DNA from: an uncultured delta proteobacterium
GTDB taxonomy: Bacteria; Myxococcota; Myxococcia; Myxococcales; Myxococcaceae
Direction: 5' to 3'
Assembly: GCA_963771175.1 (NCBI GenBank)
Contig: CAVYSY010000033.1
Span: forward strand, 320,001-384,000
DNA: 64,000 nucleotides
Shown here: piece after piece, positions 40,626-60,708 of the stretch
Layout: each line of letters starts with the position of its first letter
How positions within the stretch are numbered: position 1 is the stretch's first letter
Position numbers and translations under genes: made by a program
Notes under the pieces: generated by a model
The model's database searches: none
What the model was told of the DNA's origin: nothing
What the model saw: the letters and a program-made list of their open reading frames with translations, nothing else

Positions 40626-41075
40626 CTACTCGGGCACCAGACCCAGCTCGCGCCGGACTCGCTCGGCGGACTCGTGCAGACCCGAGAGCTCCAGCCGGTT
40701 GAGGGCCCACGCCAGCGCCTGACCCTCACGCGAAGCGATGCTGTACGGATAGGACGGCCGCTTCAGATGGAAGACGACGCCCAGCGACAGCCGGAGCACG
40801 GGACCGGGAGCGATATAGGCGATGCCGAGCACCGTCCGTCGAAAGAGCTCATCATGCTCCCGGAACCAGTCCACCTGACGTTGGCGCTGCTCGGTTGACA
40901 TCTTGCCAGCCCGGCACAGGTCGGTGATGACGACGTGGGGTTCCTCGCGGCGCAGGAAGCGAAGCCCCTCGGTGAGGTAGTCCTCGAACTCCTGGTTCGA
41001 CGGATCTCCCACGAAGCGGCTGATGAGCAGCGGCCAGTGCGAATCATCGAAAACGCAGAACCGGGAGGCGCTCAT
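40626..41075 (-). CDS. Small myxobacterial protein (STAS/SEC14-like fold, tentative)
   Basis: 149 aa starting FDDSHWPLLISRFVG; 14 bp after the kinase gene. Confidence 0.6.
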   Translation of the reverse strand: MSASRFCVFDDSHWPLLISRFVGDPSNQEFEDYLTEGLRFLRREEPHVVITDLCRAGKMSTEQRQRQVDWFREHDELFRRTVLGIAYIAPGPVLRLSLGVVFHLKRPSYPYSIASREGQALAWALNRLELSGLHESAERVRRELGLVPE

Positions 41076-41089
41076 GGAAGGGGCAGGAG

Positions 41090-43099
41090 CTAGGGCGAGT
41101 CCGCCCCCACGCGCAACGTGAGGCGCTCGCGCAGACGCGTGGGCTTGCCCGGAGTGACCTCCACGGTCCAGCGCTCGGCCTCATACCCTGGCGCCCTCGC
41201 CATCACGTGCCACACGCCCGGCGTGGGTTTCGGGTCCGTATAGGGGCTGGGAACCTTGCGCTGCCGCCCTTTGGGGTCCGTCAGCTCCAACGTGGTGCGG
41301 CGCGCCGGCCGTACCTCGATGACGAGGCTCTCGTCTCGCGCCACGGAGCGCTCGGCGCGGGTCGGCTGGGCGACGGGCGAGTCTCCTGGCCGTGGCACCG
41401 GGGCTGCCGCCTCCTTCTGCTTCGGCGCGGGCGGCTCCGGCGCGGGCTGCTCCGGCTGCTGCTTCGGCGCGGGTTGGCTCGGGGGCTCCGTGTGGCCTGC
41501 CCGCAGCCCCAGACCCAGCATCACCGCCATCCCCGCGAGCGCGAAGAGCAGGGCCAACAGCCACGCCCTGCGCGCCGAACGGGGCTGAGCGTCCGCCTGC
41601 CCCGGCTGCGGAGCGGGCTTCGCCGGCACGGAGCGCGCACGAGCCGGGGCGGGCGCACTCTTCTCGATGGGCGCAGGGGGAGCCGGCTCGGGGAGCTGGG
41701 TCGCCAGGGCCGGGGCTTGCCTGGCCTCGACGACGCGCGCGGCAGGTTGCTGAATGGGTTCCGGCTCGGGCTCACGCACGGGAGCAGCCGGCGCCTGCCT
41801 GGCCACCACGACGGGCTCCGGTTCAGGCTCCTGTTCGAGCTCACGCACGGGAACGGCCGGGGGAGCCACCACGACAGGCGCGACGGGCTCCGGCTCGGGT
41901 TCCGGTTCGGGCTGCGTGAAGATAGGAGCGGCCGGAGTCAACGGGGCCGCCGCGACAGGGGCGGCGGGTGTCCTCACTGGGACGGGCTCGGGTCGCCAGC
42001 CTTCCGTGCGCGGGGCCCGCCGCATCGCCTCGACCAGGGCGGAGGAGACCCGCACGGGCTCGGGTTGCTGGAGCGCCGCGACGGGAACGGAAGGTGCGCG
42101 CGGTTCTGAAATCTGGGGACTCTTCGCCACCTGGAAGAGCGATGCCCCCGGAGCAGCGGGGACCTGGGTGGGCGTCGCCTCCCGAGACATGGAGACGGGG
42201 GCGGGCGTCGCCTCCCGAGGCACGGGCGGAGCCGATTGAACGGGAGGCTCGGCCTGCTCGACCGGGGCCTCCGCCACCAGCGCGGCGGCGAACTCCTGGC
42301 ACGAGGCGAAGCGACGCTCCGGGTCCAGGTCCATCGCCCGGTGGATGCTCGCCAGCAGTCGGCGCTCCAGGCCCGGGTGCGCCACCTCGGGCAGCACGTA
42401 CTCGGCCCGGACGACCTTCTCCATGATGTTGAAGTCGCTCTCGCCCTGGAAGCACACGTGCCCGGTGGCCAGCTCGTAGAGGGTGACTCCGAGCGAGAAG
42501 ATGTCCGAGCGCACCGTAACGTCCCGGGCCCCGCGGATCTGCTCCGGGCTCATGTACTGCGGGGTGCCCATGCGAACGCCCGTGCGCGTCGTCGGCCTGC
42601 CCTCGGAGTTGGCCACCTTGGCGATGCCGAAGTCGAGGATGCGCACCACCCGCCGGCCGTGGCTCTGCTCCAGGAAGATGTTCGAGGGCTTGAGGTCCCG
42701 GTGGATGACGCCCTGCGCGTGCGCGAAGCCCACCCCCGCCAGCACATGCAGGAAGATGTCGCGCACCTCGTCCGGAGCCGGAGGCTGCTGTGCCCGGGCA
42801 AGGTACTTGTCGAGCGACTCGCCCTCCAGGTAGTCCATCACCAGGCCCGCGACGCCGGGCGCCGCGACCACGTCCGTGATGCCCAGGATGTTCGGGTGCT
42901 TCAGGCGCGCCTGGATGCGGCCCTCGTCCAGGAAGCGGGCCCGAATCTCCGCGTTCACCACCAGCTCTGGGTCGAGCACCTTGAGCGCATGGACGCTGCC
43001 GAGGGCCACATGGTGCACCTTGTAGACGCGCGCCATCCCGCCGCCCCCCAGCTCGCGCTCCACCTCGTAGCGCTCGACCACGTCACCCGGGCTCAACAT
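41090..43099 (-). CDS. Hanks-type Ser/Thr kinase with Pro-rich linker, TM and PEGA-like C-terminus
   Basis: LGGGGMARVY, HALK, HRDLKPSN, DFG and GTPQYMSPEQ. Confidence 0.92.
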   Translation of the reverse strand: MLSPGDVVERYEVERELGGGGMARVYKVHHVALGSVHALKVLDPELVVNAEIRARFLDEGRIQARLKHPNILGITDVVAAPGVAGLVMDYLEGESLDKYLARAQQPPAPDEVRDIFLHVLAGVGFAHAQGVIHRDLKPSNIFLEQSHGRRVVRILDFGIAKVANSEGRPTTRTGVRMGTPQYMSPEQIRGARDVTVRSDIFSLGVTLYELATGHVCFQGESDFNIMEKVVRAEYVLPEVAHPGLERRLLASIHRAMDLDPERRFASCQEFAAALVAEAPVEQAEPPVQSAPPVPREATPAPVSMSREATPTQVPAAPGASLFQVAKSPQISEPRAPSVPVAALQQPEPVRVSSALVEAMRRAPRTEGWRPEPVPVRTPAAPVAAAPLTPAAPIFTQPEPEPEPEPVAPVVVAPPAVPVRELEQEPEPEPVVVARQAPAAPVREPEPEPIQQPAARVVEARQAPALATQLPEPAPPAPIEKSAPAPARARSVPAKPAPQPGQADAQPRSARRAWLLALLFALAGMAVMLGLGLRAGHTEPPSQPAPKQQPEQPAPEPPAPKQKEAAAPVPRPGDSPVAQPTRAERSVARDESLVIEVRPARRTTLELTDPKGRQRKVPSPYTDPKPTPGVWHVMARAPGYEAERWTVEVTPGKPTRLRERLTLRVGADSP

Positions 43100-43126: not shown

Positions 43127-44575
43127 CTAGAAGAACTCCCAGGAGCCTATCTGTTTCCCGAGCCTGCGCTTGGACGCGATGCGGTAGGCGTCGATGCCCA
43201 GCAGGACGTTCACGACGAACAGGCCGCACATCCCCGTATCCATCGGGCCCACCAGCAGGCAGCACAGCAGGAGGAGGCCGATGCCCTTGAGCACCTGCCC
43301 GTTGTACATCTGACCGACCCCCGGGATGCAGAACAGACCCAGCAGCAGGGCGATCGCGGGCGAGGACGTGGAACCGGGGACGACCGCCTGCGCGGGAGGG
43401 AGCGCGGGACGGGGCGCCCTCGCGGGAGCGGGCGGGGCGCGGGGCGCGAGGAGGTCCGGCGGCGGCTCGCGGTGCTTCACCGCGGGCGGTGCGGCCACTG
43501 GGAGCGCATCGTTCGCCGGAGCCGCCACGGGCACCGGAGGCACCGGGGGCGGCGTGGGCTCCAGACGCGCCGTGTTCATCGCCGGCCTGTTGCCATTCGA
43601 AACGTACGTCGCCGCGAAGGCGGACTCCTGGGCGGGCTCGGATGCGGGCGCGACGTGCCCCACCTGGGTCTTCGCGAAGGAGCGGGACGGCCTCTCAGGC
43701 ACCGCGGGGTTCGCATCGAGCGCCTGCTCCAGGGCCTCGCGGAAGGCGGCGCAGTCCTGGAAGCGCTCGGACGGCTCCACCGCCAGCGCCTTGCGGATGC
43801 AGCCGGCGATGACGGGCGGCAGGTCGCCCACGACACGATCGGGAGGCTCGTAGGTGCCCTCCACGATGCGCTTCATCGTGTCGTACTCGCTCGACGCGTG
43901 GAAGGCGACCTGCCCGGTGGCGGCCTCGTAGAGAATGGCGCCCAGCGCGAAGATGTCGGTGCGCGCATCCACCTCGGCGGCCCCGCGAATCTGCTCCGGA
44001 CTCATGTACAGCAGCGTGCCCATGCGGGCGCCGGCCTGGGTGCGCGCCTTGCCGTCCGCGTTCTCCCCCACCAGCACCTTGGCGATGCCGAAGTCCGTCA
44101 CCTTGGGCTGGAGCCGGCCCCGGCTGTCCTTGCCGATGATGATGTTGTCCGGCTTGAGATCCCTGTGAACGATGTTGTGCCGGTGCGCCTCCTCCACGGC
44201 GTCCAGCACCGGCAGGAAGACCTCCAGGAGCAGCTTGGGCTCCAGTCCCCTGCCCCGGCAGAACTCGCCGAGCGTGGGGCCCTCGATGTAGTCCATCACC
44301 AGCCCCGCCACCGGGGTGGTGACGATCTCCGTCACCTGGACGATGTGGGGATGGCGCAGGTGCGCCTGGATGCGGCCCTCGGCGAGGAAGCGCCCGCGGA
44401 TGTCGTCGCTCCGCGACAGGTCCGCGTTGAGCACCTTCAAGGCGTGCGTGCTGTGCAACCCCAGGTGGCGCACCTGGTACACGGCGGCCATGCCGCCCTG
44501 CCCGAGCAGCCGGACCACCTCGTAGCGACCATCCAGCTGCGTTCCGGGCTGGAGGAGGTTCATGTCACCGCTCAT
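43127..44575 (-). CDS. Hanks-type Ser/Thr kinase with C-terminal TM2-like membrane domain
   Basis: LGQGGMAAVY, HRDLKPDN, DFG and GTLLYMSPEQ; C-terminal IPGVGQMYNGQVLKGIGLL. Confidence 0.92.
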   Translation of the reverse strand: MSGDMNLLQPGTQLDGRYEVVRLLGQGGMAAVYQVRHLGLHSTHALKVLNADLSRSDDIRGRFLAEGRIQAHLRHPHIVQVTEIVTTPVAGLVMDYIEGPTLGEFCRGRGLEPKLLLEVFLPVLDAVEEAHRHNIVHRDLKPDNIIIGKDSRGRLQPKVTDFGIAKVLVGENADGKARTQAGARMGTLLYMSPEQIRGAAEVDARTDIFALGAILYEAATGQVAFHASSEYDTMKRIVEGTYEPPDRVVGDLPPVIAGCIRKALAVEPSERFQDCAAFREALEQALDANPAVPERPSRSFAKTQVGHVAPASEPAQESAFAATYVSNGNRPAMNTARLEPTPPPVPPVPVAAPANDALPVAAPPAVKHREPPPDLLAPRAPPAPARAPRPALPPAQAVVPGSTSSPAIALLLGLFCIPGVGQMYNGQVLKGIGLLLLCCLLVGPMDTGMCGLFVVNVLLGIDAYRIASKRRLGKQIGSWEFF

Positions 44576-44605: not shown

Positions 44606-47383
44606 CTACCCCAATAGCCCGAGCACACCGGACTTGTCCGGACCGAACCCGAGCACCTCCTGGGGCGTACACTCAGGACACCCGTTGGCGCACTTGCAGT
44701 TGGCCAGGATGGCCCGCACCCACTTGAAGGTGTCGTCGATGAGCGCCAGGTCCAGGGCCTCGGCCACGCCCATGCCTTGGAGGTGCCGGTCCACCACGAC
44801 GATGCCGGCCGGGGCCTCGGGGAACATGCCCGGCCCCACCGGCACCACGTCCATGTCCTCGTCGCTGGAGAGCAGGTGCGCCACCAGCACCCCGTCCGCC
44901 GAGCGCGCCAGGTGGAAGAGGACGTTGGGCGTGGTGGCCGCGGGGAAGAAGACGCCGCGCACGCGGGTGCGGTAACGGCAGCTCACCGCGCCCACGTCCA
45001 CCCGCCCCGGTTTGCCCACCTGGGAGTAGCCGGTGACGCTCTCCACCACCGTCGCGTCCAGGGTACACACCTGGTACACGCACCGCCCCGTGCGCACCGT
45101 CTGGGGAGACTCCACCACGGTGGCGGACTCGAACTGGATTCGGAGCTGCGGCCGGGTGAGGGGCCGGTCGTTGGGCACCGGCTTCACGCGCAGCTCGTTG
45201 CGCTTGGTGTCCAGCGAGTGGAGCGGCACCTCGTAGCGCGTGTCTCCCACGGCGAACACGCGGCCCGGGTAGTAGCGCGTCTCCACGAGCAGCCGGTCCA
45301 CCTCGGTGAGGAGCTGGCCACTGTGCACGTCGAGGATGCGCACCACCTGCTCGCTGACGGTGCGCCGCAGCGGGTTGACGACCTCGGCCAGCACGGGCGG
45401 GACGACGGGGCTGCGCACGGGCTCGCGGCCCTGGGCGAGCCGCACCACGTGCCGCTCGGGGCGGAACTTCGGCCCCAGCACCTGCTCCACTCGCGAGCGG
45501 CCGAAGATGGCGGCCAGGGACTCCACGTCCTGCGTCCCCTCCTGCATGGCGGCCTTGAGGTGGGCCGAGGCCAGCGCCCCGTTGTGGTAGCCCACGAGCG
45601 GGCGCGGCGGCATCAGCATGCCGTTGCGGGCGAGCCCATCCAGGTTGCCGTCCCGGGTGAGGAAGCGCGTCACCGGGTTGTCGGAGAGGCCCCACAACGC
45701 GTCATGGGACTGCCCGTCCGCCAGCGGCACCCGGTGAGGGAGCGCCCGGTACGCGGCCACCAGCCATGCCTCGTCCAGCGAGCCCACCGAGGCCACGCCG
45801 AAGAGGGACACGTCGCGCACGAAGCGCAGCTCGCCGCCCCAGAAGTCCACGGCCTTGAGGTCGAAGGCACCGCTCGGGTCGCCCACGGCGGCGGGCAGCT
45901 TCGCCCCCACCACCGGCTCCAGCGCCCGACGCACCCAGGGAGTGCCGGGCTGGACGCGAAAGCCCTCGGCCACACGCCAGACGCGCACGGGGGCGGCGGC
46001 GCGCGGGGTGAAGGGCACCTCGCGGACGGAGATGCCCGGGAACATCTGCTCCACCAATCCACGCGTGCCCGCGCCGCCCACACCCGTGGCCAGCACGTTC
46101 CACCGCGCTCCGGCGGCCGACAGCGCCAGCTCCAGCCGCCGAAGGGTGAACATGCGGTGCGTGGAGACGAGCGGCGTCCCCCGGTCCACCCGCGACAGCA
46201 CCACCAGCCCCACGGAGCGGGCCCACAGGCGGCCGCAGCCCCCGCGCGTCTCGGCGAGCGCGCGGATGCCTCCGGCGGACAGTTGCTCCACGTCCAGGAA
46301 GACGGCGGCCGGCATGCGGTTGCCCGCGAAGGCCTCGCGCAGCGCCGCCTCGCCGGCCAGCAGCGGCCCCGAGGGCCACGAGCCACTGCGCGAGATGGCC
46401 TCGAGCACCGCGTCACGCAGCGCCTCCGGCTCGTCGCTGATGACGAGGCACGGCAGGCCTTCACGCTGGAGCGCGAGCAGCACGCTGGCGGTGAGGAAGT
46501 GGCGCTCCGTCGGGTCCGGCAGGTCTCCCACCAGCCAGCCCTGTTGCGGCGAGCCCCACGCACTGGCGATCTCCTCCAGCGCCCGAGGCGGAGCCCCGGT
46601 GGCACCGGAGTCCCTCCACGCGGCGGCGCTCCAGGCCGGAGCCGGCTCCGCGTTGCCCGTGCCCTGCGTCGCGAGCAGCGGGCGCGCGTTCGCGTCGAGG
46701 GCCCCCAGCTTCCGCCAGAGCGCCGGGACGTCCGCGCGTACGGGAGCGGGAACCTGAGGCTGGGGGGCCTCCTGCTTCACGGGCGGGGGCGCGAGGCGCT
46801 CGGCGCGCGTCCACACGGCGAGCGCCATGCACAGCATGGGCAGCACGGCGGCCACGTCCAGCAGCATGCGACCCGGGCGGTCCTGCCGCCACGCCCCGTC
46901 CACCACGATGAGGGCCAGCACCGGCACCGCCAGCAGCACCAGCGCCAGCGGGTCCGCGAGAGGGACGCGGAAGGGCGTGCCGAACTTGTGGTTCGCCTCG
47001 CGGAACGCGAGCACCGCCACCCCGAGGAAGAAGGCAGCGGCATGGAGCAGGACCAGCAGCACGACCGCGTCCACGGGGAACCAGGTCATCGAGGTCGCGC
47101 CGCGGGTCAGCGCCTGCTCGAGCCCGGCGAGCCACCCGAGCGGCCCGCCCTGCATGGTGGAACTGGCGGCTTCCACCAGCCGGGTGACGAGCACCAGGGC
47201 CAGGGTGACGAGGACGGCCTTGCCCACGGGAAGGGCGGCACGGCGCCAGCGGGAGTTGGGGCCGGGGCCCACCACCACGGCCGCCAGCGACCAGGCCAGC
47301 ACGGGCGTGACGAGCACGAGGCCCCACACCGCCAGGTACGCGAACGTCGCGAGGACGGCCGGATGCGGGAGTTGCAAGGTCAT
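44606..47383 (-). CDS. Membrane-anchored, degenerate MrfA/YprA-like SF2 helicase with C-terminal DUF1998-type Cys4 motif
   Basis: About 5 N-terminal TMs. WARSVGLVVLSRVD..HRMFTLRRL aligns by eye with the MrfA Walker B region. Also HLKAAMQE, YYPGRVFAVGDTRYEV and terminal CKCANGCPEC. Confidence 0.65.
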   Translation of the reverse strand: MTLQLPHPAVLATFAYLAVWGLVLVTPVLAWSLAAVVVGPGPNSRWRRAALPVGKAVLVTLALVLVTRLVEAASSTMQGGPLGWLAGLEQALTRGATSMTWFPVDAVVLLVLLHAAAFFLGVAVLAFREANHKFGTPFRVPLADPLALVLLAVPVLALIVVDGAWRQDRPGRMLLDVAAVLPMLCMALAVWTRAERLAPPPVKQEAPQPQVPAPVRADVPALWRKLGALDANARPLLATQGTGNAEPAPAWSAAAWRDSGATGAPPRALEEIASAWGSPQQGWLVGDLPDPTERHFLTASVLLALQREGLPCLVISDEPEALRDAVLEAISRSGSWPSGPLLAGEAALREAFAGNRMPAAVFLDVEQLSAGGIRALAETRGGCGRLWARSVGLVVLSRVDRGTPLVSTHRMFTLRRLELALSAAGARWNVLATGVGGAGTRGLVEQMFPGISVREVPFTPRAAAPVRVWRVAEGFRVQPGTPWVRRALEPVVGAKLPAAVGDPSGAFDLKAVDFWGGELRFVRDVSLFGVASVGSLDEAWLVAAYRALPHRVPLADGQSHDALWGLSDNPVTRFLTRDGNLDGLARNGMLMPPRPLVGYHNGALASAHLKAAMQEGTQDVESLAAIFGRSRVEQVLGPKFRPERHVVRLAQGREPVRSPVVPPVLAEVVNPLRRTVSEQVVRILDVHSGQLLTEVDRLLVETRYYPGRVFAVGDTRYEVPLHSLDTKRNELRVKPVPNDRPLTRPQLRIQFESATVVESPQTVRTGRCVYQVCTLDATVVESVTGYSQVGKPGRVDVGAVSCRYRTRVRGVFFPAATTPNVLFHLARSADGVLVAHLLSSDEDMDVVPVGPGMFPEAPAGIVVVDRHLQGMGVAEALDLALIDDTFKWVRAILANCKCANGCPECTPQEVLGFGPDKSGVLGLLG

Positions 47384-49776
47384 CGCACACCTCGCGGGGC
47401 GGCCACGGCCGGCTGCGGGGCGGAGCGAGCCCCCCGAGCAATCTCTTCCACGGAGAGGCCCTCCCAGGTGCGAAGGAAGATGACGCGCGCGGCCTTCGAG
47501 GGAGACCAGAGGACGGGCAGGCGCGAGGGCACGTCCCGCAGGCCGGCGTCGAGCGTCTCGCGCCCCGCCGACGGAGCGATGACAAAGCCCTCGCCGGGAC
47601 GGAGGCCGAGCACCGGGTCTCCATGGGCATTCAACGGCTGGCACGGCGGCGCGAGCACCGCGCCCATCCGCGAGCCGAAGTCCCGCAGCACGTCCGCCGC
47701 CTGCTGGCCACCTTCCTGGTCATCCAGCACGCTGCGCTCGGCGAGGGGCCGCACCTGACGCCGGCTCAGCTCGGCGATGCGCTCGGGGTCGCCGCAGGGC
47801 ACGTCCTCGAGCAGCCCGCCCGAGGGCCAGGCACCTTCGAGGAGGCGGTCGGCCCAGACACGGTCCTCGGAGACCTCACGGCGGGAGGCGATCCACCGGC
47901 TGATGACCTCCGGAGGCACGAGCGAGCCGTGCAGCAGCCCGCCCGCACCGAGCAGCGGTCCGAGGTCGTCCAGCCGGGCCTCGACGGCGGGCGTCACGCC
48001 GAGCGCCGAGAGTTCCTGGCGCTTGCGATCCCTCGCCTCCAGCAGTGCATGGCGCACGGCCTGAAGCCGGGCCACGGCGTTCTCCAGTGCGAGGATGGCA
48101 CCCCGGCGGGCACGCTTGCGGCGAACCACGAGCTGCAGCTCCGCCTGTCGAGCGCGACGCCCTCCCCCACCCCGGCTGACGAGCGACTCCAGCGCATCAC
48201 GCCGGAGCTTCAACACCCGGCGGACCTCCTTCCGGGTGTGGTTGCCGACGAAGTAGAGCCACCCGCCTCCAGCGCCCAGCGCGGCGAGCGTGCCGAGAAT
48301 CCACGGCAGGGCCTCGCGCCAGTCGAAGCCGCTGGGGGTGGGAGTGGCCGTGACCGAGAGCTGGACGCGCGAGGGGCCGCTGCCAGCGGTGGGCACGGCC
48401 GGAGTCATGAGCGACAGCGTCCCGAAGGAGACGCCCAGCAGCACGGCGAGCGAGAGAGCCGCGGCGGCCACCATCGCCAGCCCCTTCGAGGGGAGCTCCA
48501 GCAGGGCGTGCTCCAGCTCCTCGCGGTGCGGGTCCACCGGAGGGCCCGACGGCTGGGAAGGATCCAACCGATGCAGGGCGGCGGCCTCCTGGGCCTGCTC
48601 ATCGTGGAGCTGCGCGATGACACGCTTCAGCCCCTGCTCGACGGCGGGGAGCTGGGACAGGCCCGAAGCGGGCCCGAGCGAGGCGTCGAACACCGCCTGG
48701 ATGCCCTGCTCCACCGAGGCAGCCACCTCGGCCTCGGCGCGGTCGAGCGCGCGGAAGGTCTCGTCGGTGCGGGCCTGATCGACGGTGGTGGGCGCGGCCT
48801 CCACCGAGGCCGGCTTGAAGAGGCCGGAGTGGTTGGCGCGAATCTCCTCGGCGGAGTCGAGGGGACCCACGTGAATCTGAGCGGGCAGGTCCACCGGGGA
48901 GCGGGACAGCTCGGCGGCGAGACGACGGGAGAGCTGCGCGGCCTGCCCCTCGACGAAGGGGGCCAACCAGCGGTCATTCTGGAGCGCGGAGACGGCGCCC
49001 ATGGCCAGGGTCGGGTCGGTCACCGACTGCTGCACGCGCTCCACCAGCACCCCGAGCCCGTCATAGGCGGCACGAGCAGCGGCATAGGTGCGCAGGCGCG
49101 ACTCGGGCAGCTCCACCGAGGCGAGCGAGACGAAGCCGATGAGGCCCTCGTCGCGCGCCGGGTGGGCCATGCGCCGGGACACCTCGTCCTCGGTGCGCAG
49201 CCCCGAGGCCACCATGCCGAGCGCGAAGGAGGCACAGGTGGACACCATCTCCTCGGAGGTGAGGGTGCCCGCGGCCGTCTGCTGGGACACGAGCCAGATG
49301 CGGGCCAGCACGGGGAACACGGGCCGCGCACGCGCCCAGCTCTCCAGGGAGGCCAGCCGCGCGAGGGCCACCGAGGCCCGGGGGTTGGACAGCGCCGGCA
49401 CCTGCACCACGAGGTGCAGCGTGGCGGTGCGCTGCTCCGGCGGCCTGTCCGGAGGGAACATGGCGCCATAGCCCTCGGCCAGCAGGCGCGCCGTCTGCTC
49501 GCACGCGGTGAGCAGGTCCTCGTCGCCGCCCTGCAGCGCGGCGGCGAAGGCGACGACATCCAACCGCTGGTCACGCCGCTCGCCCGAGCCTCGGCCCGCG
49601 CGCAGCAGGTCCTCCAGCAGGGGCTGGAGCCCGGCGGCCACGCCCGAGGGCTCGCAGCGCAGCACGCCGAGCAGCGGCGAGGAGGCCTCCAGCGACTGGA
49701 GCGCGCGGCCGATGACCTCATGGCCGAAGCGCCCCAGCCCGAGGAGGACGGTGGGGTACGAAACGGCGGCGTCCAA
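47380..49776 (-). CDS. Degenerate tubulin-like-domain protein with coiled coils and two TMs
   Basis: N-terminal YPTVLLGLGRFGHEV matches the T1 loop of the upstream paralogue; no GGTGSG; TTG start with RBS GAGGAG. Confidence 0.6.
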   Translation of the reverse strand: MDAAVSYPTVLLGLGRFGHEVIGRALQSLEASSPLLGVLRCEPSGVAAGLQPLLEDLLRAGRGSGERRDQRLDVVAFAAALQGGDEDLLTACEQTARLLAEGYGAMFPPDRPPEQRTATLHLVVQVPALSNPRASVALARLASLESWARARPVFPVLARIWLVSQQTAAGTLTSEEMVSTCASFALGMVASGLRTEDEVSRRMAHPARDEGLIGFVSLASVELPESRLRTYAAARAAYDGLGVLVERVQQSVTDPTLAMGAVSALQNDRWLAPFVEGQAAQLSRRLAAELSRSPVDLPAQIHVGPLDSAEEIRANHSGLFKPASVEAAPTTVDQARTDETFRALDRAEAEVAASVEQGIQAVFDASLGPASGLSQLPAVEQGLKRVIAQLHDEQAQEAAALHRLDPSQPSGPPVDPHREELEHALLELPSKGLAMVAAAALSLAVLLGVSFGTLSLMTPAVPTAGSGPSRVQLSVTATPTPSGFDWREALPWILGTLAALGAGGGWLYFVGNHTRKEVRRVLKLRRDALESLVSRGGGGRRARQAELQLVVRRKRARRGAILALENAVARLQAVRHALLEARDRKRQELSALGVTPAVEARLDDLGPLLGAGGLLHGSLVPPEVISRWIASRREVSEDRVWADRLLEGAWPSGGLLEDVPCGDPERIAELSRRQVRPLAERSVLDDQEGGQQAADVLRDFGSRMGAVLAPPCQPLNAHGDPVLGLRPGEGFVIAPSAGRETLDAGLRDVPSRLPVLWSPSKAARVIFLRTWEGLSVEEIARGARSAPQPAVAAPRGVR

Positions 49777-49777: not shown

Positions 49778-52700
49778 CTAGCTCCTCAGCTCGGTGGCGA
49801 GCGCCTCCACCACGGTGCGCTCATCCTGGAGGAAGCGGCGCTCGGAGTCCTTCTGCTCGGCGACGGCGCGCGCGTAGGCCTCGGTGAGGCGGCGCTGGTG
49901 GGCCTGCACCTCCTCCAGCAGCTTGTTGCGCGAGGGCCGCTCCACCGTCGCGTTCACCCAGGAATCGCGGGCGTTCTTCTCCAGGTCCTCGCGGAGCACG
50001 GGGTCGAGCGCCTCGAAGGCATCGAAGGCGCGCACCCGGTCCGGCGCGAGCTTGTTCTTCGTGCCGGCGAAGCTCCAGTGGTAGCCCTCCTCGTCGCGCG
50101 AGATGCCGCCGAACAGGGCGCACAGGGTGAAGGCGCGCAGGCGGGCGTCACGGGCCTCGCGGGTGGCCTGGGCGCTGCGCTCGACGGCGCGGCGATCCTC
50201 GGCCCGCTTCAGCTCCACCGGGTCCAGGTCGGGCAGGCCCGGCGAAGACTCCCACGCCGCCTCGATGTGCAGCGGGTAGGTGCGGTTCTTGTCGTCGCGC
50301 ACGCGCTTGTAGCCGGCGTACAGGTCGGACTGGACGTTCTTGAACCAGTACACGGGCACGCCGAGCAGCGCGCGGTAGAGCACGAGCGAGTCCCGCTCCT
50401 CCCACCCCGTGACGCGGTTGGAGCCGGACACCACGCCCCTGAGGATGTTCCAGAGCGAGCCCTCCTCGTCGCTGGCGTACTTGTCGTGCAGGCCGGCGTA
50501 GAAGACGTCCGCGGGCGTCACCGTGGGGTCGTCCCGGCGCGTGGCGTCGATGTGGGCCAGCAGCACGCACTCGTCGGACAGGCGCTTGAGCCGATCCTCG
50601 ATGCCGCGACGCACCTCGGTGGCGGACACGGCGCGCAGTTCCTCCTCCAGCTTGCCCTTGCGGCGCAGCTCCTCCAGGTCCTTCCCGGCCTTGTGCAGGG
50701 CGATGTAGCGCTGCTCCAGGTCGAGGCCCGAGGCCAGGTCGAGGCCCATCTCCTCCATCACCTTGCCGTAGACCTGGGTGGCCTGGGTCTCCAGCTTGCC
50801 GCGCACGTGCTGGACGATCTCATTGGCGTCGCGGGCGCGGAGCTGACCGTTGGGGTCTCTCACCGGGGTGAAGGCCTCGGTGACGGTGTCGAAGATGTCG
50901 GCGGCGCGGAAGTGGGCGTCGCTGTCGAGCTTGTGGGCGTAGAACTCCTTCCACAACCGCTCGCGGCGCCGGTCGTCGCGGAGCACCTCGGCGTCCAGGT
51001 AGTACTGGGCCACGTCCGAGCCCGCGTCCACCGCGGCCGGGTCCTTGCGGAAGCGCTCGGCCTGGGACTCGGCGTCACGGGCGCGCTCGTCGGCCACCTG
51101 GGCCACCTTGCGGAAGGACTCCAGCCGGGCCTCGGCGTCCTTGCGCAGCTCGCTCTCGAAGGACTTCCAGAAGAAGCGCTTGATCTCGTCGCGGAACTCG
51201 TTGGCCCAGCTCTCCACCTTGGCCACGGCGCGCAGTTTGGTGGTGGCGAAGGCCTTGTTGTCCCGGTCCGTGAGGCTCTGGAGGAAGCCGGGGTTGGCCT
51301 GCCGCGCCATCTCGCCGTCGAGCCTCGAAATCTCCTGGCGCAGCTCCGGGCTGTCCAGGTCGGGCGGAGCGCCGTCGGCCTTGAGGTAGGCGCCCTCCTC
51401 CGGGTCCTTGAAGGGGACGATGAAGGACTGCTCCAGCAGGCGGATGAGGAAGAGCCGCTGGGAGATGGGGTTGACCTCGTACTCCTTGAAGAAGGACTCG
51501 AAGAAGCGGCCGGTGCGCACGTCGCCGCGCTGGGCCTCGAGGTACTCGCCGCACACGCGGGCGCGCGACTCGTCCTTCGCCCGGCGCAGCACCGCGATGG
51601 CTCGGCTCAGCGACGGGTTGCCCGGGTTGATGGACTGCTTCTCCACGTCCGGGATGTCGATCTGCTCGTCCAGCTTCCCGAAGATGGCCTCCAGCTTCTC
51701 GCGGAAGGCTTCGGCGAGGTTCTTCCCGCCCTTACCAATCTGCTGCTGGATTCCGTAGAACTGGCCCTTCTCGTCGCGGCGATCCTCCTCGCTGGCACGG
51801 AAGGAGACATAGCCCTTGAACTTCTCGTCGATGCGGCGGTTCTTCTCGTTGGGCTCCAGCCGCTGGAAGGCCGGGTCGCCGTAGGGCACCTGGAAGTCCG
51901 GGTGGTCCGCGCCGAAGCAGAGGAACTGCCGGAAGGCGCTCGCCACGTAGCGCAGGCCCGCGTACTTGAGGAGGTCCTTCCGAGGCAGTTGCAGCAGCGC
52001 GGTGCCGAACGAGCCGTAGTGCACGGAGAAGTGGCCCAGGGCGAGCTTCTTCTGGTGCTTCTCGTAGTTGTCGTACTCACCGGCCTGCGCGCCGAGCAGC
52101 GGCGAGAAGATCTGCAGGTAGCAGGCGTCGGCCACCGCGTTCTCGTACTTCTCGATGGAGAGCTGGTCCGGCCGGTCGATGAGGTAGGTGAGCGTGAAGG
52201 GCCGCTCGGAGACGGTCTGGCGGCTGCGGTCCTGGCTGCCCGGGTCGTAGTGGAACTCGATCTCGCCGAGGCCGCCCGAGTAGTCGAGCTGGCGGTTGAG
52301 GTACTCCAGCTCCTTGAGGGCGGAGTAGCCGTTGGCGAGGATGTCCGGATGGAGCTGGGGCTTCACCTTGTCGAGGAAAGCCGTGGGCAGGGTGAGCACG
52401 CCCACCACGCTGGGCCGGCCCCAGCCCGCGTCGAGCACCATGCGGCGCAGCAGGTAGGCCATGGGGAGGAAGCCACCCGAGCCGGTGCCGCCGGCCACCG
52501 AGCCGTAGATCATCACCCGGACGACGCGGTTCTCGTTGTCGCGCCAGGGGTTCTCGCGGCGGGTGGACTCGTCGAGCAGCTTCTGGAGGGCCTTGCGAAT
52601 GCCGCGCCGATCCTCCTCGAGGTTGTAGTAGAGGCGCAGGCGGCTCTCCATGCGGATCTGCCCGGCGCCAGCGCCCTGGGTGGAGCGGAACTGGTAGGTG

Positions 52701-53002
52701 GAGGGGACCCACTGGGTGACGAGCGAATCCTCGTTCAGCTCGCGCTGGCCGCGCTTGCGCTCGATATAGGCGCGTGCGTCGAAGGCGGAGATGAGGAAGC
52801 GGTTCTCCACCGGGACGTCCTTGAGCTTGTCGAGGTCGTCCTTGTTGGTATCGATGGCCACGAAATGGGTGAGCGACTTGATGCGCTCCCAGTTCGGGTG
52901 TCGGCGCAACCGGCCAGAGAGAAGCTGGACGATCTTTCCGCCGTTACCACCGAGTCCCACGAACAGCGTCGGGTTGAACTTCTCCGTCGCGAGCAGCCCC
53001 AA
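49778..53002 (-). CDS. Tubulin/FtsZ-superfamily GTPase (Tubulin_2 / FtsZ-like 1 type), 1074 aa with long helical C-terminus
   Basis: PTLFVGLGGNGGKIV, IDT, GAGQIRMESRL, signature GSVAGGTGSG and ANGYSALKELEY; TTG start with RBS GGAGGGG. Confidence 0.88.
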   Translation of the reverse strand: MGLLATEKFNPTLFVGLGGNGGKIVQLLSGRLRRHPNWERIKSLTHFVAIDTNKDDLDKLKDVPVENRFLISAFDARAYIERKRGQRELNEDSLVTQWVPSTYQFRSTQGAGAGQIRMESRLRLYYNLEEDRRGIRKALQKLLDESTRRENPWRDNENRVVRVMIYGSVAGGTGSGGFLPMAYLLRRMVLDAGWGRPSVVGVLTLPTAFLDKVKPQLHPDILANGYSALKELEYLNRQLDYSGGLGEIEFHYDPGSQDRSRQTVSERPFTLTYLIDRPDQLSIEKYENAVADACYLQIFSPLLGAQAGEYDNYEKHQKKLALGHFSVHYGSFGTALLQLPRKDLLKYAGLRYVASAFRQFLCFGADHPDFQVPYGDPAFQRLEPNEKNRRIDEKFKGYVSFRASEEDRRDEKGQFYGIQQQIGKGGKNLAEAFREKLEAIFGKLDEQIDIPDVEKQSINPGNPSLSRAIAVLRRAKDESRARVCGEYLEAQRGDVRTGRFFESFFKEYEVNPISQRLFLIRLLEQSFIVPFKDPEEGAYLKADGAPPDLDSPELRQEISRLDGEMARQANPGFLQSLTDRDNKAFATTKLRAVAKVESWANEFRDEIKRFFWKSFESELRKDAEARLESFRKVAQVADERARDAESQAERFRKDPAAVDAGSDVAQYYLDAEVLRDDRRRERLWKEFYAHKLDSDAHFRAADIFDTVTEAFTPVRDPNGQLRARDANEIVQHVRGKLETQATQVYGKVMEEMGLDLASGLDLEQRYIALHKAGKDLEELRRKGKLEEELRAVSATEVRRGIEDRLKRLSDECVLLAHIDATRRDDPTVTPADVFYAGLHDKYASDEEGSLWNILRGVVSGSNRVTGWEERDSLVLYRALLGVPVYWFKNVQSDLYAGYKRVRDDKNRTYPLHIEAAWESSPGLPDLDPVELKRAEDRRAVERSAQATREARDARLRAFTLCALFGGISRDEEGYHWSFAGTKNKLAPDRVRAFDAFEALDPVLREDLEKNARDSWVNATVERPSRNKLLEEVQAHQRRLTEAYARAVAEQKDSERRFLQDERTVVEALATELRS

Positions 53003-53111
53003 GGCTCCCCCTCCGAGTCATCTCCACTGCATGTAGAGAGTACCTGTCCGGTATAGCACGGCGGACAGGGAGCCACGCGCACTCGTGGTTTCACCGCATG
53101 CCGACGCTGGG

Positions 53112-54893
53112 TCACACGCCCGGACTCACCCCAGCTCCCGACCCGCGCTGCCCGGCGCCCACGTATCGCGCCCGGATCGACATCCACTTGCGCGCGACCA
53201 CCAACCCGAAGCTCAGCAAGCCAACACTGAGCAGGTTCTCGGCCAGGAGGGCCAGGTGCCGCCCCTCCGCCCCCGCGAAGACGAGGAGCCCCAGCGGCAC
53301 CAGGAGGCAGGTGCCCAGCACGGGGGCCGCGTCGCTCCACGGGCCCGCACCGAAGTTCTCCGCCAGCGCGTGCATCATGCTGAAGACCCCGCACAGGCCC
53401 ACTCCCACCAGCACGCCCATGCTCGCGCCGAACGCGAGGCTGCTGGACTGGTGGTTCTGCAGGATGGGCTGGAGGAAGGCCCCCAGCGAGGCGAAGGCCG
53501 CGACCATGCCCAACAGCACGGTGCCAAACCACGTCCCCGGTGTCTCCCGCCTCCGCAGGAAGAACACCAGCAGGCCTGGGAAGACGAGCAGCAGGCCCAG
53601 CACGGCCCCCAGCGCCCTCTCACGCTCCATGCCCCAGGACAGGTCGGCGTAGGCGAACTGCAAGCCAATGAGGCCCACCGAGACGACCAGCACCAGTCCC
53701 TCCAGCAGTCCCCACATCACCGCCAGCAGTTGCCTCCGGGTGGGCGAGCGTCGCTCGTGCACACGCTGCATCCACAGCACGCCACACGCCGTCCCGCACA
53801 GCGTCCCCGCGGTCACGCCCCCTACAATCCAGCCACCCTCCTGCATCGGTATCGTGACGAGCGCCGCGACGCCCCCCGCCAACCCGCCCAAGGTCGCCGC
53901 TCCGACCGCCGCTCCCACTCCCGTGAGCACGCTCAATCCCAGCGCCCCCACCATGGCGAGGCAGTAGCTCATCATGAGGTGCTGGGAGACCGACTCCAGC
54001 ACACCAGGGAGGAACAACCCGGGGTTGCGCTGGAGCGAGCCAGCGAGTGACAGGTCGAACAGGAGCACCGTGACGAGCGGCCCCAACAGACATCGCAGCA
54101 GGAAGAAGAGCACCGGCGCTTGCTGGGCCTGGGCCACCGAGAGCTCGTACGCACCGAACCCCGGCGCCAGCCGCGGGTCCACACTGGAGAGTTCCCGCTT
54201 CCACCCCTCCGAGTCCGCGATGGCGGCCAGGAAGAGCTGGATGGTCCCGTAGGTGAAGCTCCGCTGCCGCCAGCCCTGCGGCCCAGCACTGGCCCGCCGC
54301 CGCCAGAGCGAGAGGACGGCCGATGCCGAGGTGGCGAGCACCCTTCCCTCCTCCCGCGTCCGCTGGGTCACCAGCCCCACCACCTTGCCCCCCTGCATCA
54401 CGGGGCAACCTGGCAGCGCCCGAGCCTCCACGTCGGCCTCCGGGCTCAGGGTCACCTCGAGGACGTCGCCCTGCGGAGCCAGACGCCCCGGGAGCCGCTG
54501 CCCTCCCTGCGCGGAGGAGAGGAGCACGAGGCAGTTGGAGACCTCCGTCGGAGCATCCTCCAGGAGGAACCACTCCTCCCGCACCTCGGCCGAGCCCCCC
54601 AGTACCTCGACCACGAGGGGCTCGCTTCCAGCCACCGCACTCGGGGCAACTCCCTCCATCTCCGGTGCCAGCAGCGCCAGGTTGGACTCGTCATCCGACT
54701 CCACGACGAGCACCTGCTCCGCCTGCCCCGGCGCTCGGACCACGACGCGTTGCACCTCACGGTGCCGGGGTCCCAGCAGGTGGGAGGCGGCCGTCAGGTA
54801 GAGGCCTGGACCCACGCGCCAGGCCGAGGCCTCACGAGCCTCCTCTCCCGTGGGGGAGAGACGAAGACGAACGACCTCGGGTTGAGTGTCCAT
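53112..54893 (-). CDS. Degenerate trypsin-like domain fused to a polytopic membrane domain
   Basis: LTAASHL, NLALL and LPGCPVMQGGKVVGLV (trypsin-like, but the GxSG Ser is missing), followed by about 10 TMs. Confidence 0.55.
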   Translation of the reverse strand: MDTQPEVVRLRLSPTGEEAREASAWRVGPGLYLTAASHLLGPRHREVQRVVVRAPGQAEQVLVVESDDESNLALLAPEMEGVAPSAVAGSEPLVVEVLGGSAEVREEWFLLEDAPTEVSNCLVLLSSAQGGQRLPGRLAPQGDVLEVTLSPEADVEARALPGCPVMQGGKVVGLVTQRTREEGRVLATSASAVLSLWRRRASAGPQGWRQRSFTYGTIQLFLAAIADSEGWKRELSSVDPRLAPGFGAYELSVAQAQQAPVLFFLLRCLLGPLVTVLLFDLSLAGSLQRNPGLFLPGVLESVSQHLMMSYCLAMVGALGLSVLTGVGAAVGAATLGGLAGGVAALVTIPMQEGGWIVGGVTAGTLCGTACGVLWMQRVHERRSPTRRQLLAVMWGLLEGLVLVVSVGLIGLQFAYADLSWGMERERALGAVLGLLLVFPGLLVFFLRRRETPGTWFGTVLLGMVAAFASLGAFLQPILQNHQSSSLAFGASMGVLVGVGLCGVFSMMHALAENFGAGPWSDAAPVLGTCLLVPLGLLVFAGAEGRHLALLAENLLSVGLLSFGLVVARKWMSIRARYVGAGQRGSGAGVSPGV

Positions 54894-54999
54894 GCGAATG
54901 CCCCCGCGCGAGGCCCACGGCACGGGCCCGAGACTCGCGGCGAGGCCACACGCTAACCTGCTTCAGGGAAGTCCGGTAAGGCGCAGGCTCGGCATCGCT

Positions 55000-55427
55000 A
55001 TGACGCGCTTCCATGGCGTCTTCGCACCCGGCGCGAAACTCAGGCCATTTCTGCTCCCTGCGGCGGCGAGGCCGAGCGAGGAGGAGGCACCCGCGGCAGC
55101 GGCAGCAGGGGTGGGCACGTGCAGGGGGCGTCAGCGCGCACCGAGGCTCGACTGGGCGGGACTGCTGCGCCGCGTTTTCAAGGTGGACGTCTTCTCCTGC
55201 GCCAGATGCGGAGGCAGGCGGCGGGTGCTGGCGTACTTGACGCATGCAGCGGCCATCCGCCCCATCCTCCAGCACCTGAAGCTGCCAGACACTCCTGCGC
55301 CGCTCGCACCTGCGCGCTGGCCACCGCAGGAGGCACTCTGGGGGTAGCCGCTCCACTGCGGCAGCACCCGTAAGCCCCATGCCCACTCGCGCCTCACCTC
55401 GCAACAGGGCCCCTGTTCCTCCTATGC
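55000..55427 (+). mobile_element. IS91/ISCR-like rolling-circle element remnant (transposase C-terminus plus putative end)
   Basis: RFHGVFAPGAKLRP..RLDWAGLLRRVFKVDVFSCARCGGRRRVLA..ILQHL..APARWPP; hairpin AACAGG-GCC-CCTGTT at 55403-55417. Confidence 0.75.
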
Positions 55428-55610
55428 GCCGCGGCCTGGACAGGCGAGTACCCCAAGGGGCTGCGCGGCCTCTCCACCAGGATCTCGGTCGATGACTCCA
55501 GCCCCGCGGTCACGGAGCGCAAGAGCTGGGGAGGGTTGGTCTCCTTTCAAGTGTGTCCTGCCGCTAATATCCGCCGCGGCAGAGCATCCCACACGGGATT
55601 TGGAGAGACG

Positions 55611-57155: not shown

Positions 57156-57283
57156 TCCCCGCAGCGGCGGCCTCGGGCGAGGAAGAGGCACCAACTCCGA
57201 CGCCGGCAACCCCGGCTTCTCCGAGGTGCCGCAGGGGCTGTACTTCATCCACGATGAGCGCCAGGTGTTTCTGCTGCGCGAGG

Positions 57284-57473
57284 CTGCGGTGGCGAGGCCG
57301 AGCGAGGAGGAGGCACCCGCGGCAGCGGCAGCAGGGGTGGGCACGTGCAGGGGGCGTCAGCGCGCACCGAGGCTCGACCAGGCGGGACTGCTGCGCCGCG
57401 TTTTCAAGGTGGACGTCTTCTCCTGCGCCAGATGCGGAGGCAGGCGGCGGGTGCTGGCGTACTTGACGCATGC
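57284..57473 (+). repeat. Second copy (190 bp) of the IS91 transposase fragment
   Basis: Near-identical to 55058-55247. Confidence 0.9.
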
Positions 57474-57882
57474 GCAGCTCCCCCACGTTCCGCACCACCC
57501 GCGCCCGGTGTCTCAGCTGCGGCATGGCCATGTTCAGCGACGTCTCCAGCGCCCACCGCACATCCGCCAGCCCATCCCGCGCGTCCCAGTCCTCCCCTCG
57601 CGCGAACGTCGTCAGGTCCCCCACCACCTCGCGGATGCGTTGGGTGCCCTGCTTCGCCTCGTCGAGGGCCTCCACGCACTCCACCAGCGTGCGCCGCAGC
57701 TCGTCGGGGTTCCTCGGGCCGTTCGGGTCGCTCAGCTCCTGCTTCAGCTCCGCGAGCGCCTCCCCGATGAAGTTGAGGTTGGAGGAGAGGTAGCCCAGGG
57801 GGTTGTTCACCTCGTGCGCCACCCCCGCCGCCAGCGTGCCCAGCGCCGCCAGCCGGTCCGCCTGCAGCAGCTTCAGCTCCAG
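57474..57882 (-). pseudogene. Internal fragment of an NtrB-type sensor histidine kinase
   Basis: QADRLAALGTLAAGVAHEVNNPLGY H-box; truncated at both ends by IS91 pieces. Confidence 0.8.
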
Positions 57883-57967
57883 TGACAAACGCTCCAGAGC
57901 CAGCGCGCCACGCGCCCCGTAGCGGCACAGCCGCTCCAGCCCCTGCCTGTCGTTGGCGTGCAGGTGT
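57883..57967 (-). mobile_element. IS91-family transposase internal fragment
   Basis: Minus strand reads HLHANDRQGLERLCRYGARGALALERLS, the Tyr-containing motif of IS91-type transposases. Confidence 0.75.
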
Positions 57968-58130
57968 TACCTCTCGCCATTCGCTCCTCCATCTTGGGTG
58001 GACGAGCCCGGCGTTGCATGGCGCCGGACCGCCTGCCTTTCAGGACGACAGGTCGCGTCGATTCGTCTCAGCCCCGCACGGCCGCGAAAAGCGTTGACTC
58101 AGCCAACACCGCCCGCGTTCACTCGTCGCC

Positions 58131-59471: not shown

Positions 59472-59557
59472 CCCCCGAAGGAGCTGCAGATGCTCCACTT
59501 CGGGGATATCTACATGTTGGTGAGGAAAGAGTAGCGAGCAGGTTGGATCGCGCTCGC

Positions 59558-60490: not shown

Positions 60491-60708
60491 CCGGCTGGCC
60501 TCCTCGAAAGAGAGCGCACCGCTTATGCCCGAGCAGACACGGAGCGTCGACGACTCACTTCTGCGATGTAGAGCACTTCACATCGTTAGGACAGCGGTGG
60601 GGTTCGACACGCGAATGCGGTAGCCCTTTCGTCCATTCTCGATAGGGGCGTAGCACTTGCCTTTGAAAAGCACGCTGCCGAATCAAGGCCTGATAACCTG
60701 CAGCCCGA

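Follow-up and report, generated by a model that had tools for sequence, protein, structure and literature searches.

What is a tubulin-like protein of 1074 residues doing outside any cell-division cluster, and does it carry a whole tubulin fold? The question is raised by a gene in a 64,000-nucleotide stretch of DNA, called here the window, which covers positions 320001-384000 of contig C33 (CAVYSY010000033.1) in the 9.8-Mb, 58-contig genome of an uncultured delta proteobacterium of the Myxococcaceae (GCA_963771175.1). We identify the gene as a member of FtsZl1, a family described by Makarova and Koonin in 2010 (PMC2875224). Its product is predicted to have the complete tubulin fold, split in two by a long helical insertion, and the gene immediately downstream is predicted to encode a second protein with the same split fold, a membrane hairpin, and degenerate glycine loops.

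The tubulin-like gene and its family

In window coordinates, the gene and its motifs are as follows.

49778..53002, minus strand: FtsZl1-type tubulin-like GTPase gene (P0001), 1074 aa, TTG start (open reading frame, translation, PF13809, homologues, AlphaFold2 model)
53003..53020, minus strand: Shine-Dalgarno-like stretch GGAGGGGGAG before the TTG (read from the sequence; orthologue starts are similarly purine-rich upstream)
52934..52957, minus strand: T1-type loop GLGGNGGK, residues 16-23 (aligns with the equivalent loop of CetZ 4b46)
52658..52675, minus strand: GAGAGQ loop, residues 110-115 (G112, A113, G114 and Q115 invariant in 65 sequences)
52472..52492, minus strand: T4 signature GGTGSGG, residues 171-177 (a sub-threshold PF00091 match spans residues 160-209)
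52049..52093, minus strand: candidate T7/H8 'synergy' segment GAQAGEYDNYEKHQK, residues 304-318 (conservation, and position after helix 283-299)

The frame is open for 1074 codons on the minus strand, so the open reading frame (ORF) proposed by the first-pass annotation of this DNA is real, and its codon composition (G+C of 0.96 at the third position vs. 0.41 at the second) is typical of genuine genes here, the G+C of the whole window being 70%. A frame of 1182 aa antisense to the gene was discarded as a low-complexity shadow ORF. The TTG start is supported at the sequence level by the Shine-Dalgarno-like stretch, by homologues that start at the same aligned residue, and by the start codons of orthologues. 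Each of the 9 orthologues examined from Archangium/Vitiosangium has TTG here and each of the 19 from farther away has ATG, and thus the TTG is a lineage trait. The suggestion of the first-pass annotation that a TTG start may limit expression is speculative.

The GTP-binding loops, which the first-pass annotation had read as intact, are all found. We call GLGGNGGK a T1-type loop, following the loop naming of FtsZ and tubulin, and we take GAGAGQ to be, probably, the T3-type phosphate-sensing loop. Residues G16, L17, G18, G19, G21 and G171-G176 are invariant in an alignment of 65 homologues of the tubulin-like protein, and a motif scan of the window reports only one GGTGSG in a long frame. The same alignment points to a further candidate. 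Residues Q306, D311, N312, Y313 and K315 are invariant, at least 90% of the sequences keep G308 and E309, and the nearly invariant GAQAGEYDNYEK (residues 304-315) stands, in the predicted model, at the position expected for the T7 loop and helix H8. The segment 304-318, with its acidic G308-E309-Y-D311-N312, may be the T7 loop of this protein.

Which tubulin family does the gene belong to? The hidden Markov model comparison that the first-pass annotation had suggested gives a clear answer. PF13809 (Tubulin_2) matches residues 13-357 over profile positions 1-355 of 356 with 185 bits (cut-off 27, E 3.2e-54), while PF00091, the Tubulin/FtsZ GTPase family, reaches 18.6 bits, under its cut-off of 33. 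A canonical FtsZ is about 350-450 aa long, exceeds the cut-offs of PF00091 and FtsZ_C (PF12327), and is encoded among dcw genes, and none of these applies here: FtsZ_C is not found in the protein, no dcw genes lie nearby (kinases, a deacetylase, and membrane and signalling proteins are encoded there), and the genome's only FtsZ_C match belongs to a canonical FtsZ on contig C32. The gene is therefore not FtsZ, just as annotated. The description of it as lying outside any division cluster holds as far as dcw genes go, but the gene is not isolated, being part of a conserved multigene system.

The proteins covered by PF13809 are those that Makarova and Koonin called 'FtsZ-like' in 2010 (PMC9871819). 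A control search with PF13809 matches D. radiodurans, C. glutamicum and M. acetivorans, and D. radiodurans, C. glutamicum (strain R) and M. acetivorans all appear in the FtsZl1 data of the 2010 paper (PMC2875224). That paper describes FtsZl1 as present in most major bacterial lineages and some archaea, coexisting with a normal FtsZ, and encoded beside von Willebrand factor A (vWA) proteins, protein kinases, a divergent GTPase, and membrane proteins. Because the profile match, the architecture and the kinase-rich context all fit that description, we take the gene as FtsZl1; as judged from sequence, its membership in this family (Tubulin_2), and not among division FtsZ proteins, is confirmed.

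The family is well populated. There are 421 relatives at E <= 1e-10 among the candidates scored from 5.8 billion proteins, and the full-length homologues among the best 120 of the 421, mostly from Myxococcota, have 41-94% identity. The nearest public relatives come from Archangium genomes, with 97% protein identity, and some NCBI homologues already bear the name 'tubulin-like domain-containing protein'. NCBIfam has no family for the protein or its downstream partner, and a search of the PDB by sequence, using a 16-sequence profile, reports only CetZ 4b46 with E 0.85. Within this genome, which is 82% complete, PF13809 finds a single copy (188.6 bits), and tblastn and profile searches find no further copies of the tubulin-like gene or of its two downstream neighbours beyond the operon.

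Predicted folds of the protein and its partner

Does the protein have a complete tubulin fold? The 2010 paper (PMC2875224) could not settle this for FtsZl1 by sequence. The AlphaFold2 model, built from the 65-sequence alignment, has a predicted local distance difference test score (pLDDT) of 89.5 and a predicted TM-score (pTM) of 0.72, and we divide it as follows.

51920..52978, minus strand: tubulin fold, first part, residues 9-361 (PF13809 residues 13-357; model secondary structure; Foldseek, VIA)
50513..51919, minus strand: charged helical insertion of about 470 aa, residues 362-830 (model secondary structure, aligned ranges, composition)
50114..50512, minus strand: tubulin fold, second part, residues 831-963 (model, VIA, conservation)
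49781..50113, minus strand: C-terminal extra module, residues 964-1074 (model: small beta sheet 967-986 plus helices)

Searched against the PDB with Foldseek, the model has 33 matches at E <= 1e-3, the best one to CetZ1 4b46 (1.6e-5), and among the matches listed (about 30 of the 33) all are CetZ, TubZ, FtsZ or tubulin chains. The first-pass annotation had let its superfamily assignment hang on a tubulin fold in the predicted structure; the top matches are only FtsZ/tubulin-superfamily chains, and together with the PF13809 match they bear the assignment out. Re-alignment with VIA gives Z scores of 20.8-22.1 over 302-344 residues with a root-mean-square deviation (rmsd) of about 3.9, using model residues 9 to about 930. 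The top superfamily match has Z 22.1, 336 residues, rmsd 3.9, and a model range of 10..930. The aligned counterparts are whole chains, 1..431 for tubulin and 1..345 for CetZ.

Because the aligned span of 9 to about 930 covers whole tubulin and CetZ chains, and because of the order of the secondary-structure elements, the tubulin fold in the model is complete but split by a helical insertion inside its second domain. Residues 9-361 of the model contain the Rossmann-like GTPase domain, the presumed core helix 283-299, the next helix, and a strand and a helix of the second domain. The insertion follows (17% K+R and 20% D+E), and it includes a 71-residue helix at 583-653. The second domain then resumes in residues 831-963, with strands 831-837, 862-864 and 872-882 and helices 850-857, 888-902 and 928-963, and with an RxYPLHI motif (residues 907-913) that is nearly invariant in the homologues. 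The C-terminal residues 964-1074 are kept in the homologues, which are conserved over their full length. Thus, the first-pass annotation was right that about 700 aa after the GTP-binding loops are charged and mostly helical, but this is not a plain tail, as residues 831-963 complete the predicted tubulin fold.

The split topology in the model offers an explanation for why the 2010 paper missed the T6-H7 elements and the C-terminal domain by sequence. A Thermaceae FtsZl1 protein weakly matches profile positions 866-928 (independent E 0.009), and this weak match hints that a displaced second domain could be a feature of the whole FtsZl1 family.

We now turn to the downstream gene.

47380..49776, minus strand: pseudo-tubulin partner gene (P0003), 798 aa, TTG start (AlphaFold2 model, PDB fold search)
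49027..49761, minus strand: partner, first part of the predicted fold, residues 6-250 (model, fold search, hhalign collinearity)
48235..48486, minus strand: partner, predicted transmembrane hairpin, helices 431-456 and 486-514 (model, hydropathy, membrane helix-pair alignments)
47401..47601, minus strand: partner, second part of the predicted fold, residues 726-792 (model, fold search)

The partner gene starts one base after the stop of the tubulin-like gene (a 1-nt gap), and a GAGGAG stretch precedes its TTG. Both genes start with TTG, as the first-pass annotation had noticed; among 23 homologues of the partner, 13 start with GTG, 5 with TTG, and 5 with ATG. The AlphaFold2 model of the partner, from 36 sequences, has pLDDT 85.8. 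We searched it against 48,161 PDB representatives without the Foldseek pre-filter, and the top 16 chains all belong to the FtsZ/tubulin superfamily (Z 14.8-10.5, 237-279 residues, model residues 6 to about 792). By protein, the Z scores are 14.8 for CetZ, 14.7 for an Asgard tubulin, 14.4 for BtubA, 14.0 for gamma-tubulin, 13.7 for TubZ, 13.3 for FtsZ, and 11.9-10.5 for PhuZ, and the first unrelated fold appears at Z 9.8. The two genes had been called paralogues from the sequence alone, and the relationship is real at the level of the fold, with the sequence similarity almost gone.

The partner also has an insertion, of 475 residues, at the equivalent point of the model (after the strand-helix pair 213-248), and the order of the elements is the same. 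Its glycine loops are degenerate, with GLGRFGHEV in place of T1 and VPALS in place of GGTGSG. The predicted hairpin has a disordered loop at 458-484 and a hydropathy peak at 433-451, and residues 430..514 align to membrane helix pairs. Given the same fold, the equivalent insertion point and the replaced glycine loops, the partner is, in these models, a membrane-anchored, motif-less copy of the tubulin-like protein, and the most likely origin of the pair is the duplication of a gene that already had the insertion.

The partner family has no Pfam model. At E <= 1e-3 it has 171 members in a set of 1.84 billion cluster representatives, and a scan of 49 distant relatives, taken from the best 150 of the 171, finds none with PF13809 or any other above-cut-off family, so that no sequence bridge connects the partner and the tubulin-like families. 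Foldseek also relates the partner stalk to alpha-pore-forming toxins (E 9e-4, TM-score 0.12-0.23, rmsd about 31), and the partner to the dynamin-like BDLP, Mgm1, Drp1 and SynDLP (probability 0.2-0.4). With such low TM-scores and rmsd near 30, we set both aside as weak analogies.

The conserved neighbourhood

The other genes of the neighbourhood are the following.

44606..47383, minus strand: MZB membrane protein, 925 aa (PF09369, MrfA profile match, hydropathy)
43127..44575, minus strand: Ser/Thr protein kinase, 482 aa (PF00069 E 4e-41; hydrophobic segment in the C-terminal part)
41090..43099, minus strand: second Ser/Thr protein kinase, 669 aa (PF00069 E 4e-49; one predicted transmembrane segment)
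40626..41075, minus strand: small 149-aa ORF closing the gene run (no family match; 51-57% identity in 5 of 17 Archangium/Vitiosangium loci)
53112..54923, minus strand: upstream polytopic membrane protein, up to 603 aa, start uncertain (hydropathy, locus comparison)

We compared 79 loci related to the tubulin-like gene. A partner-like ORF lies directly downstream in 54 of the 63 loci with enough flank, 2 more being lost to the distance rule, and an MZB-like ORF comes next in 39/48. The partner and MZB genes abut in the other loci, whereas in one Myxococcota metagenome-assembled genome (L064 15563-18461) they lie about 2.9 kb apart. In our window the ATG of the MZB gene overlaps the TGA of the partner gene (ATGA). 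A kinase gene follows directly after the MZB gene in several of the related loci.

The MZB protein has about 5-6 N-terminal transmembrane helices (around 200 residues), a middle region without helicase motifs, and a C-terminal region of MrfA type. Its PF09369 match has 32 bits (cut-off 24.2), and 18 of 21 family members have one. The C-terminal 240 or so residues match MrfA/YprA (6znp 509-748, E 1.1e-11), including a four-cysteine zinc domain whose cysteines are invariant in the family. The helicase part is another matter: none of the 21 family members matches DEAD (PF00270) or Helicase_C (PF00271) at E <= 0.1, and aligning the protein to the MrfA helicase core gives -4.2 bits, with the Walker-type motifs replaced. 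The Atlas language-model neighbours of the soluble part are DEAD/Helicase_C/MZB helicases, and its own cluster has 11% DEAD.

What lies upstream differs between loci. A vWA-like receptor gene, encoding a membrane protein of about 700 aa, ends within 102 nt of the tubulin-like start in 36 loci; its vWA Pfam matches are weak and below the cut-off (E 2e-4 and 6.5e-4 in two homologues). Before it, related loci have a second receptor-like protein, a PP2C phosphatase, a vWA-FHA protein and a zinc-ribbon-FHA protein. In our genome, genes for two receptor-like membrane proteins, a PP2C, a vWA-FHA and a zinc-ribbon-FHA protein are found beyond the window, at C33 387403-395807 (L087 3403-11807), and in most loci of non-Archangium type their homologues immediately precede the tubulin-like gene. 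Since related loci join both halves, we regard this vWA/PP2C/FHA cluster as the other half of an ancestral system.

The two halves are separated by a receptor-to-tubulin-like gap of 14.4 kb here, vs. 1.0-5.8 kb in Archangium-type loci. Most of the gap is a 12.4-kb stretch (window 54944-64000 and about 3.4 kb beyond; C33 374944-387388), partly of lower G+C (0.63-0.67 at 56-62 kb), that the eight Archangium/Vitiosangium loci compared lack at this junction, and that looks like an insertion into the ancestral cluster. Its genes encode a polysaccharide deacetylase with EGF-like repeats, a HisKA fragment, a glyoxalase, an alpha/beta-hydrolase, a methyltransferase, a GGDEF protein, a response regulator with Hpt, and a RibD_C protein. 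Between this stretch and the tubulin-like gene, the upstream 603-aa ORF starts with a soluble part of about 250 residues, shows around nine hydrophobic segments, and has no match in Pfam, NCBIfam or PADLOC. It has homologues only in Archangium-type loci, nearly full length in 4 of them (66-69% identity); in the locus of the closest relative (L008) only a short C-terminal piece matches.

The tubulin-like gene is found in all 17 sampled genomes of the same genus, in 2/183 sampled genomes from other genera of the family, and, in an order-wide sample, in 5/13 genomes of one other family and nowhere else. Contigs from four soil/biocrust metatranscriptome libraries (3 studies), 90-99% like the DNA here, cover most of the kinase, MZB, partner and tubulin-like genes, and one of 2.7 kb spans 50259-53005. 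By their sequence, these contigs fit expression of the operon in close relatives, which is not a proof of it. The upstream membrane-protein gene (53106-55000) is almost uncovered by the RNA contigs, which is uninterpretable given its poor conservation in relatives.

Past the end of the gene run, an ORF of 182 aa (window 38527-39075, minus strand) matches only positions 217-329 of 438 of the cytochrome c552 (NrfA) profile, perhaps because it is a fragment or because its start is mis-called.

Possible function and comparison with known systems

What could these proteins do together? Our starting point is what has been described above, that is, the family, the predicted fold with its split topology, the pseudo-tubulin partner, and the conserved synteny; on top of it we infer GTPase activity, assembly, pairing of the two proteins, phospho-control, and a biological output. 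The explanation that we favour, and to which we would give an even chance, is a phospho-regulated, GTP-driven assembly of the tubulin-like protein with its partner at the membrane. The tubulin-like protein would be a cytoplasmic GTPase, its tubulin/FtsZ fold interrupted by a helical stalk of about 470 residues, and it would work with the downstream partner, a dead paralogue held in the membrane by the hairpin of its stalk. Binding of GTP by the intact subunit would drive head-to-tail association on the inner face of the membrane, with itself, with the dead membrane-anchored copy, or with both, resulting at least in hetero-oligomers and possibly in filaments. The MZB membrane protein, with its MrfA-type zinc domain and decayed helicase core, would be a third structural component. 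Ser/Thr phosphorylation would switch the assembly by means of the adjacent kinases, the PP2C phosphatase, and FHA proteins coupled to the surface vWA-like receptors. The output may be a change in the membrane or envelope, such as remodelling, scaffolding or permeabilisation.

Several points weigh against this explanation. All the structures are predictions, and the large insertion could sterically block tubulin-like protofilaments. The candidate T7 loop was placed without coordinates. For FtsZl1 proteins, the 2010 paper reports that the T6-H7 elements and the C-terminal domain were not found by sequence, and allows that there may be no filaments (PMC2875224); in the literature, judged mostly by title and abstract, we find no experimental study of the family. 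A BLASTP comparison of the tubulin-like protein with its partner gives nothing significant (best E 1.7), and hhalign aligns partner residues 158-245 to residues 270-361 of the tubulin-like protein collinearly but marginally (E 0.002, probability 14%). The partner is undetected by profile in 7 loci, and MZB has 9 misses; these are the most distant loci, of Bradymonadales type, with 32-36% identity. Finally, with the vWA/PP2C/FHA genes 14.4 kb away here, co-regulation is not evident.

The assembly model can be taken further, into a version that we consider unlikely. The pair would form an obligate two-subunit 'split tubulin' machine, one subunit binding GTP and the other a dead, membrane-inserted copy, with a dynamin/BDLP-like build of head, stalk and membrane paddle on the basis of a tubulin head, and with a helical stalk of about 470 residues entering both folds at the same point. 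A vWA signal passed through kinase, PP2C and FHA proteins would lead paired or polymerised heads to pull on the hairpins and so remodel or perforate the membrane, in phage defence or in developmental programmed lysis. FtsZl1 operons might generally be paired likewise, through downstream genes of the 'B1/B3' type of the 2010 paper.

The best surviving rival, which we see as possible if distinctly less probable than assembly at the membrane, is that the cluster is a conflict system against phages or competitors, in which the vWA receptors together with the kinase, phosphatase and FHA proteins sense an attack, and the tubulin-like pair plus the MZB protein are the effector, for instance by abortive membrane damage. 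Three Thermaceae megaplasmids point that way, as they have a vWA gene, a tubulin-like gene, a gene for a protein of about 680 aa, and then directly a BrxL-like gene, annotated as BREX Lon-like BrxL (L089 5366-14458; L091 7422-15381; L092 7321-15398). The Allomeiothermus cassette is flanked by two copies of IS701, and the Meiothermus cassette lies beside DUF1156 and Swt1-HEPN genes. The three records are related, however, so they are not independent, and no BrxL, nuclease or other known effector appears in our cluster in Pfam and PADLOC scans. Helicases of several defence systems typically have the MZB (DUF1998) domain, and helicases with DEAD, Helicase_C and MZB domains are the nearest feature neighbours of our MZB protein. 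Yet PADLOC-DB 2.0 has no family at E <= 0.01 for the tubulin-like, partner, MZB and upstream membrane proteins, and its matches to the two kinases (PD-T4-6) are generic kinase-domain matches. The patchy distribution outside the genus, the junction adjoining the tubulin-like gene, which is an insertion hot spot, and the weak resemblance of the partner stalk to pore-forming toxins are also what one would expect of defence; but the gene is fixed within its genus in a syntenic place, and the gene order is conserved across several Myxococcota classes, unlike that of most defence islands.

Could the protein instead be a GTPase switch that does not polymerise? The tubulin-fold heads would only dimerise on GTP, as homo- or heterodimers and in a dynamin-like manner, with the stalks relaying the resulting change to the membrane. 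In the predicted models, the arrangement of head, stalk and membrane hairpin would suit such a switch, as would the low-probability dynamin matches of the partner, but it is long helices that drive these weak matches. Makarova and Koonin considered that filaments may be absent, while stating that all characterised members of the FtsZ/tubulin superfamily had been shown to form filaments (PMC2875224). The conserved acidic T7-like segment suggests activation across a longitudinal interface, and we think a pure dimerising switch quite improbable. As for an alternative or auxiliary cell-division FtsZ, for which only the shared superfamily fold and GTP loops speak, we reject it as having next to no chance, given the sub-threshold PF00091, no FtsZ_C, 1074 aa, no dcw neighbours, a canonical FtsZ on C32, and a gene not found in 181/183 sampled genomes of other genera.

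Why does GTP-driven assembly of this pair matter, if it occurs? Within the tubulin/FtsZ superfamily no branch is more divergent than FtsZl1, which was predicted in 2010 and for which no experimental study was found sixteen years on. Whether its members have the full tubulin fold and polymerise is a long-standing question, to which the predicted model gives a testable answer, and a role of the pair in membrane remodelling or immunity, if there is one, would put the tubulin fold to a new use in bacteria. Taken alone, the tubulin-like gene is unremarkable: it is already annotated, and its family is known and was defined computationally. What we do not find in the sources examined are the split topology of the predicted fold, a partner that is, in the models, a transmembrane pseudo-tubulin of the same topology, and an MZB membrane protein as a conserved third component in Myxococcota.

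How does the locus compare with known systems? Like the MrfA (YprA)/DUF1998 helicases, the MZB protein has the C-terminal 240 or so residues with the four-cysteine zinc domain; unlike MrfA, it lacks DEAD and Helicase_C, has its Walker-type motifs replaced, and begins with a transmembrane part of about 200 residues. The Thermaceae cassettes share with our cluster the tubulin-like gene followed by a gene for a large protein (about 680 aa), and they have the vWA gene directly upstream, as many of the related loci do. They differ in having BrxL, where our cluster has the MZB membrane protein and Ser/Thr kinases. The HMMER profile of the partner detects neither the Thermaceae protein (Allomeiothermus) nor the gene downstream of FtsZl1 in Azospirillum. 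With hhalign, the N-terminus of the Allomeiothermus protein is weakly collinear with the partner family (E 0.019, probability 2.5%, 25% identity over 157 columns), and the Azospirillum protein has E 0.12; a relationship of the Allomeiothermus protein to the partner family is suggestive at best.

Alpha/beta-tubulin, BtubA/B and the Asgard AtubA/B are, like our two genes, adjacent or co-expressed paralogues with one fold, and BtubA (2bto) and AtubA/B2 (9f6v) are among the best structural matches of the partner. Both subunits bind nucleotide in those pairs. The partner here differs from the heterodimeric tubulins in having no glycine-rich loops and a predicted membrane hairpin, and its pairing with the tubulin-like protein is putative. 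CetZ, tubulin, TubZ, PhuZ and FtsZ (3zid, 4b46, 7exc, 2xkb, 1fsz) share with our proteins the predicted two-domain fold, with T1 and T4 in the GTPase; in comparison with them, our proteins have 10-17% identity, a second-domain insertion of about 470 or 475 residues, and an extra C-terminal module.

The closest comparison is with FtsZl1 as described in PMC2875224. The shared traits are an N-terminal GTP domain with T1 and T4, a length of about 1000-1200 aa, a long coiled-coil or helical region, kinases, membrane proteins and (ancestrally) vWA proteins as neighbours, and the coexistence of a normal FtsZ. The sole myxobacterial example in the available part of that paper is Plesiocystis, with vWA, FtsZl1, a hypothetical protein of about 900 aa, and a histidine kinase. 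Within the same part, the downstream partner is not described as a tubulin-like paralogue, and the MZB membrane protein is absent from the associated families listed (A1-A2, B1-B9, GTPase, OmpA). Finally, FtsZl1 was alignable there only up to helix H5 and had no C-terminal domain, whereas our model puts that domain at residues 831-963, on the far side of the helical insertion.

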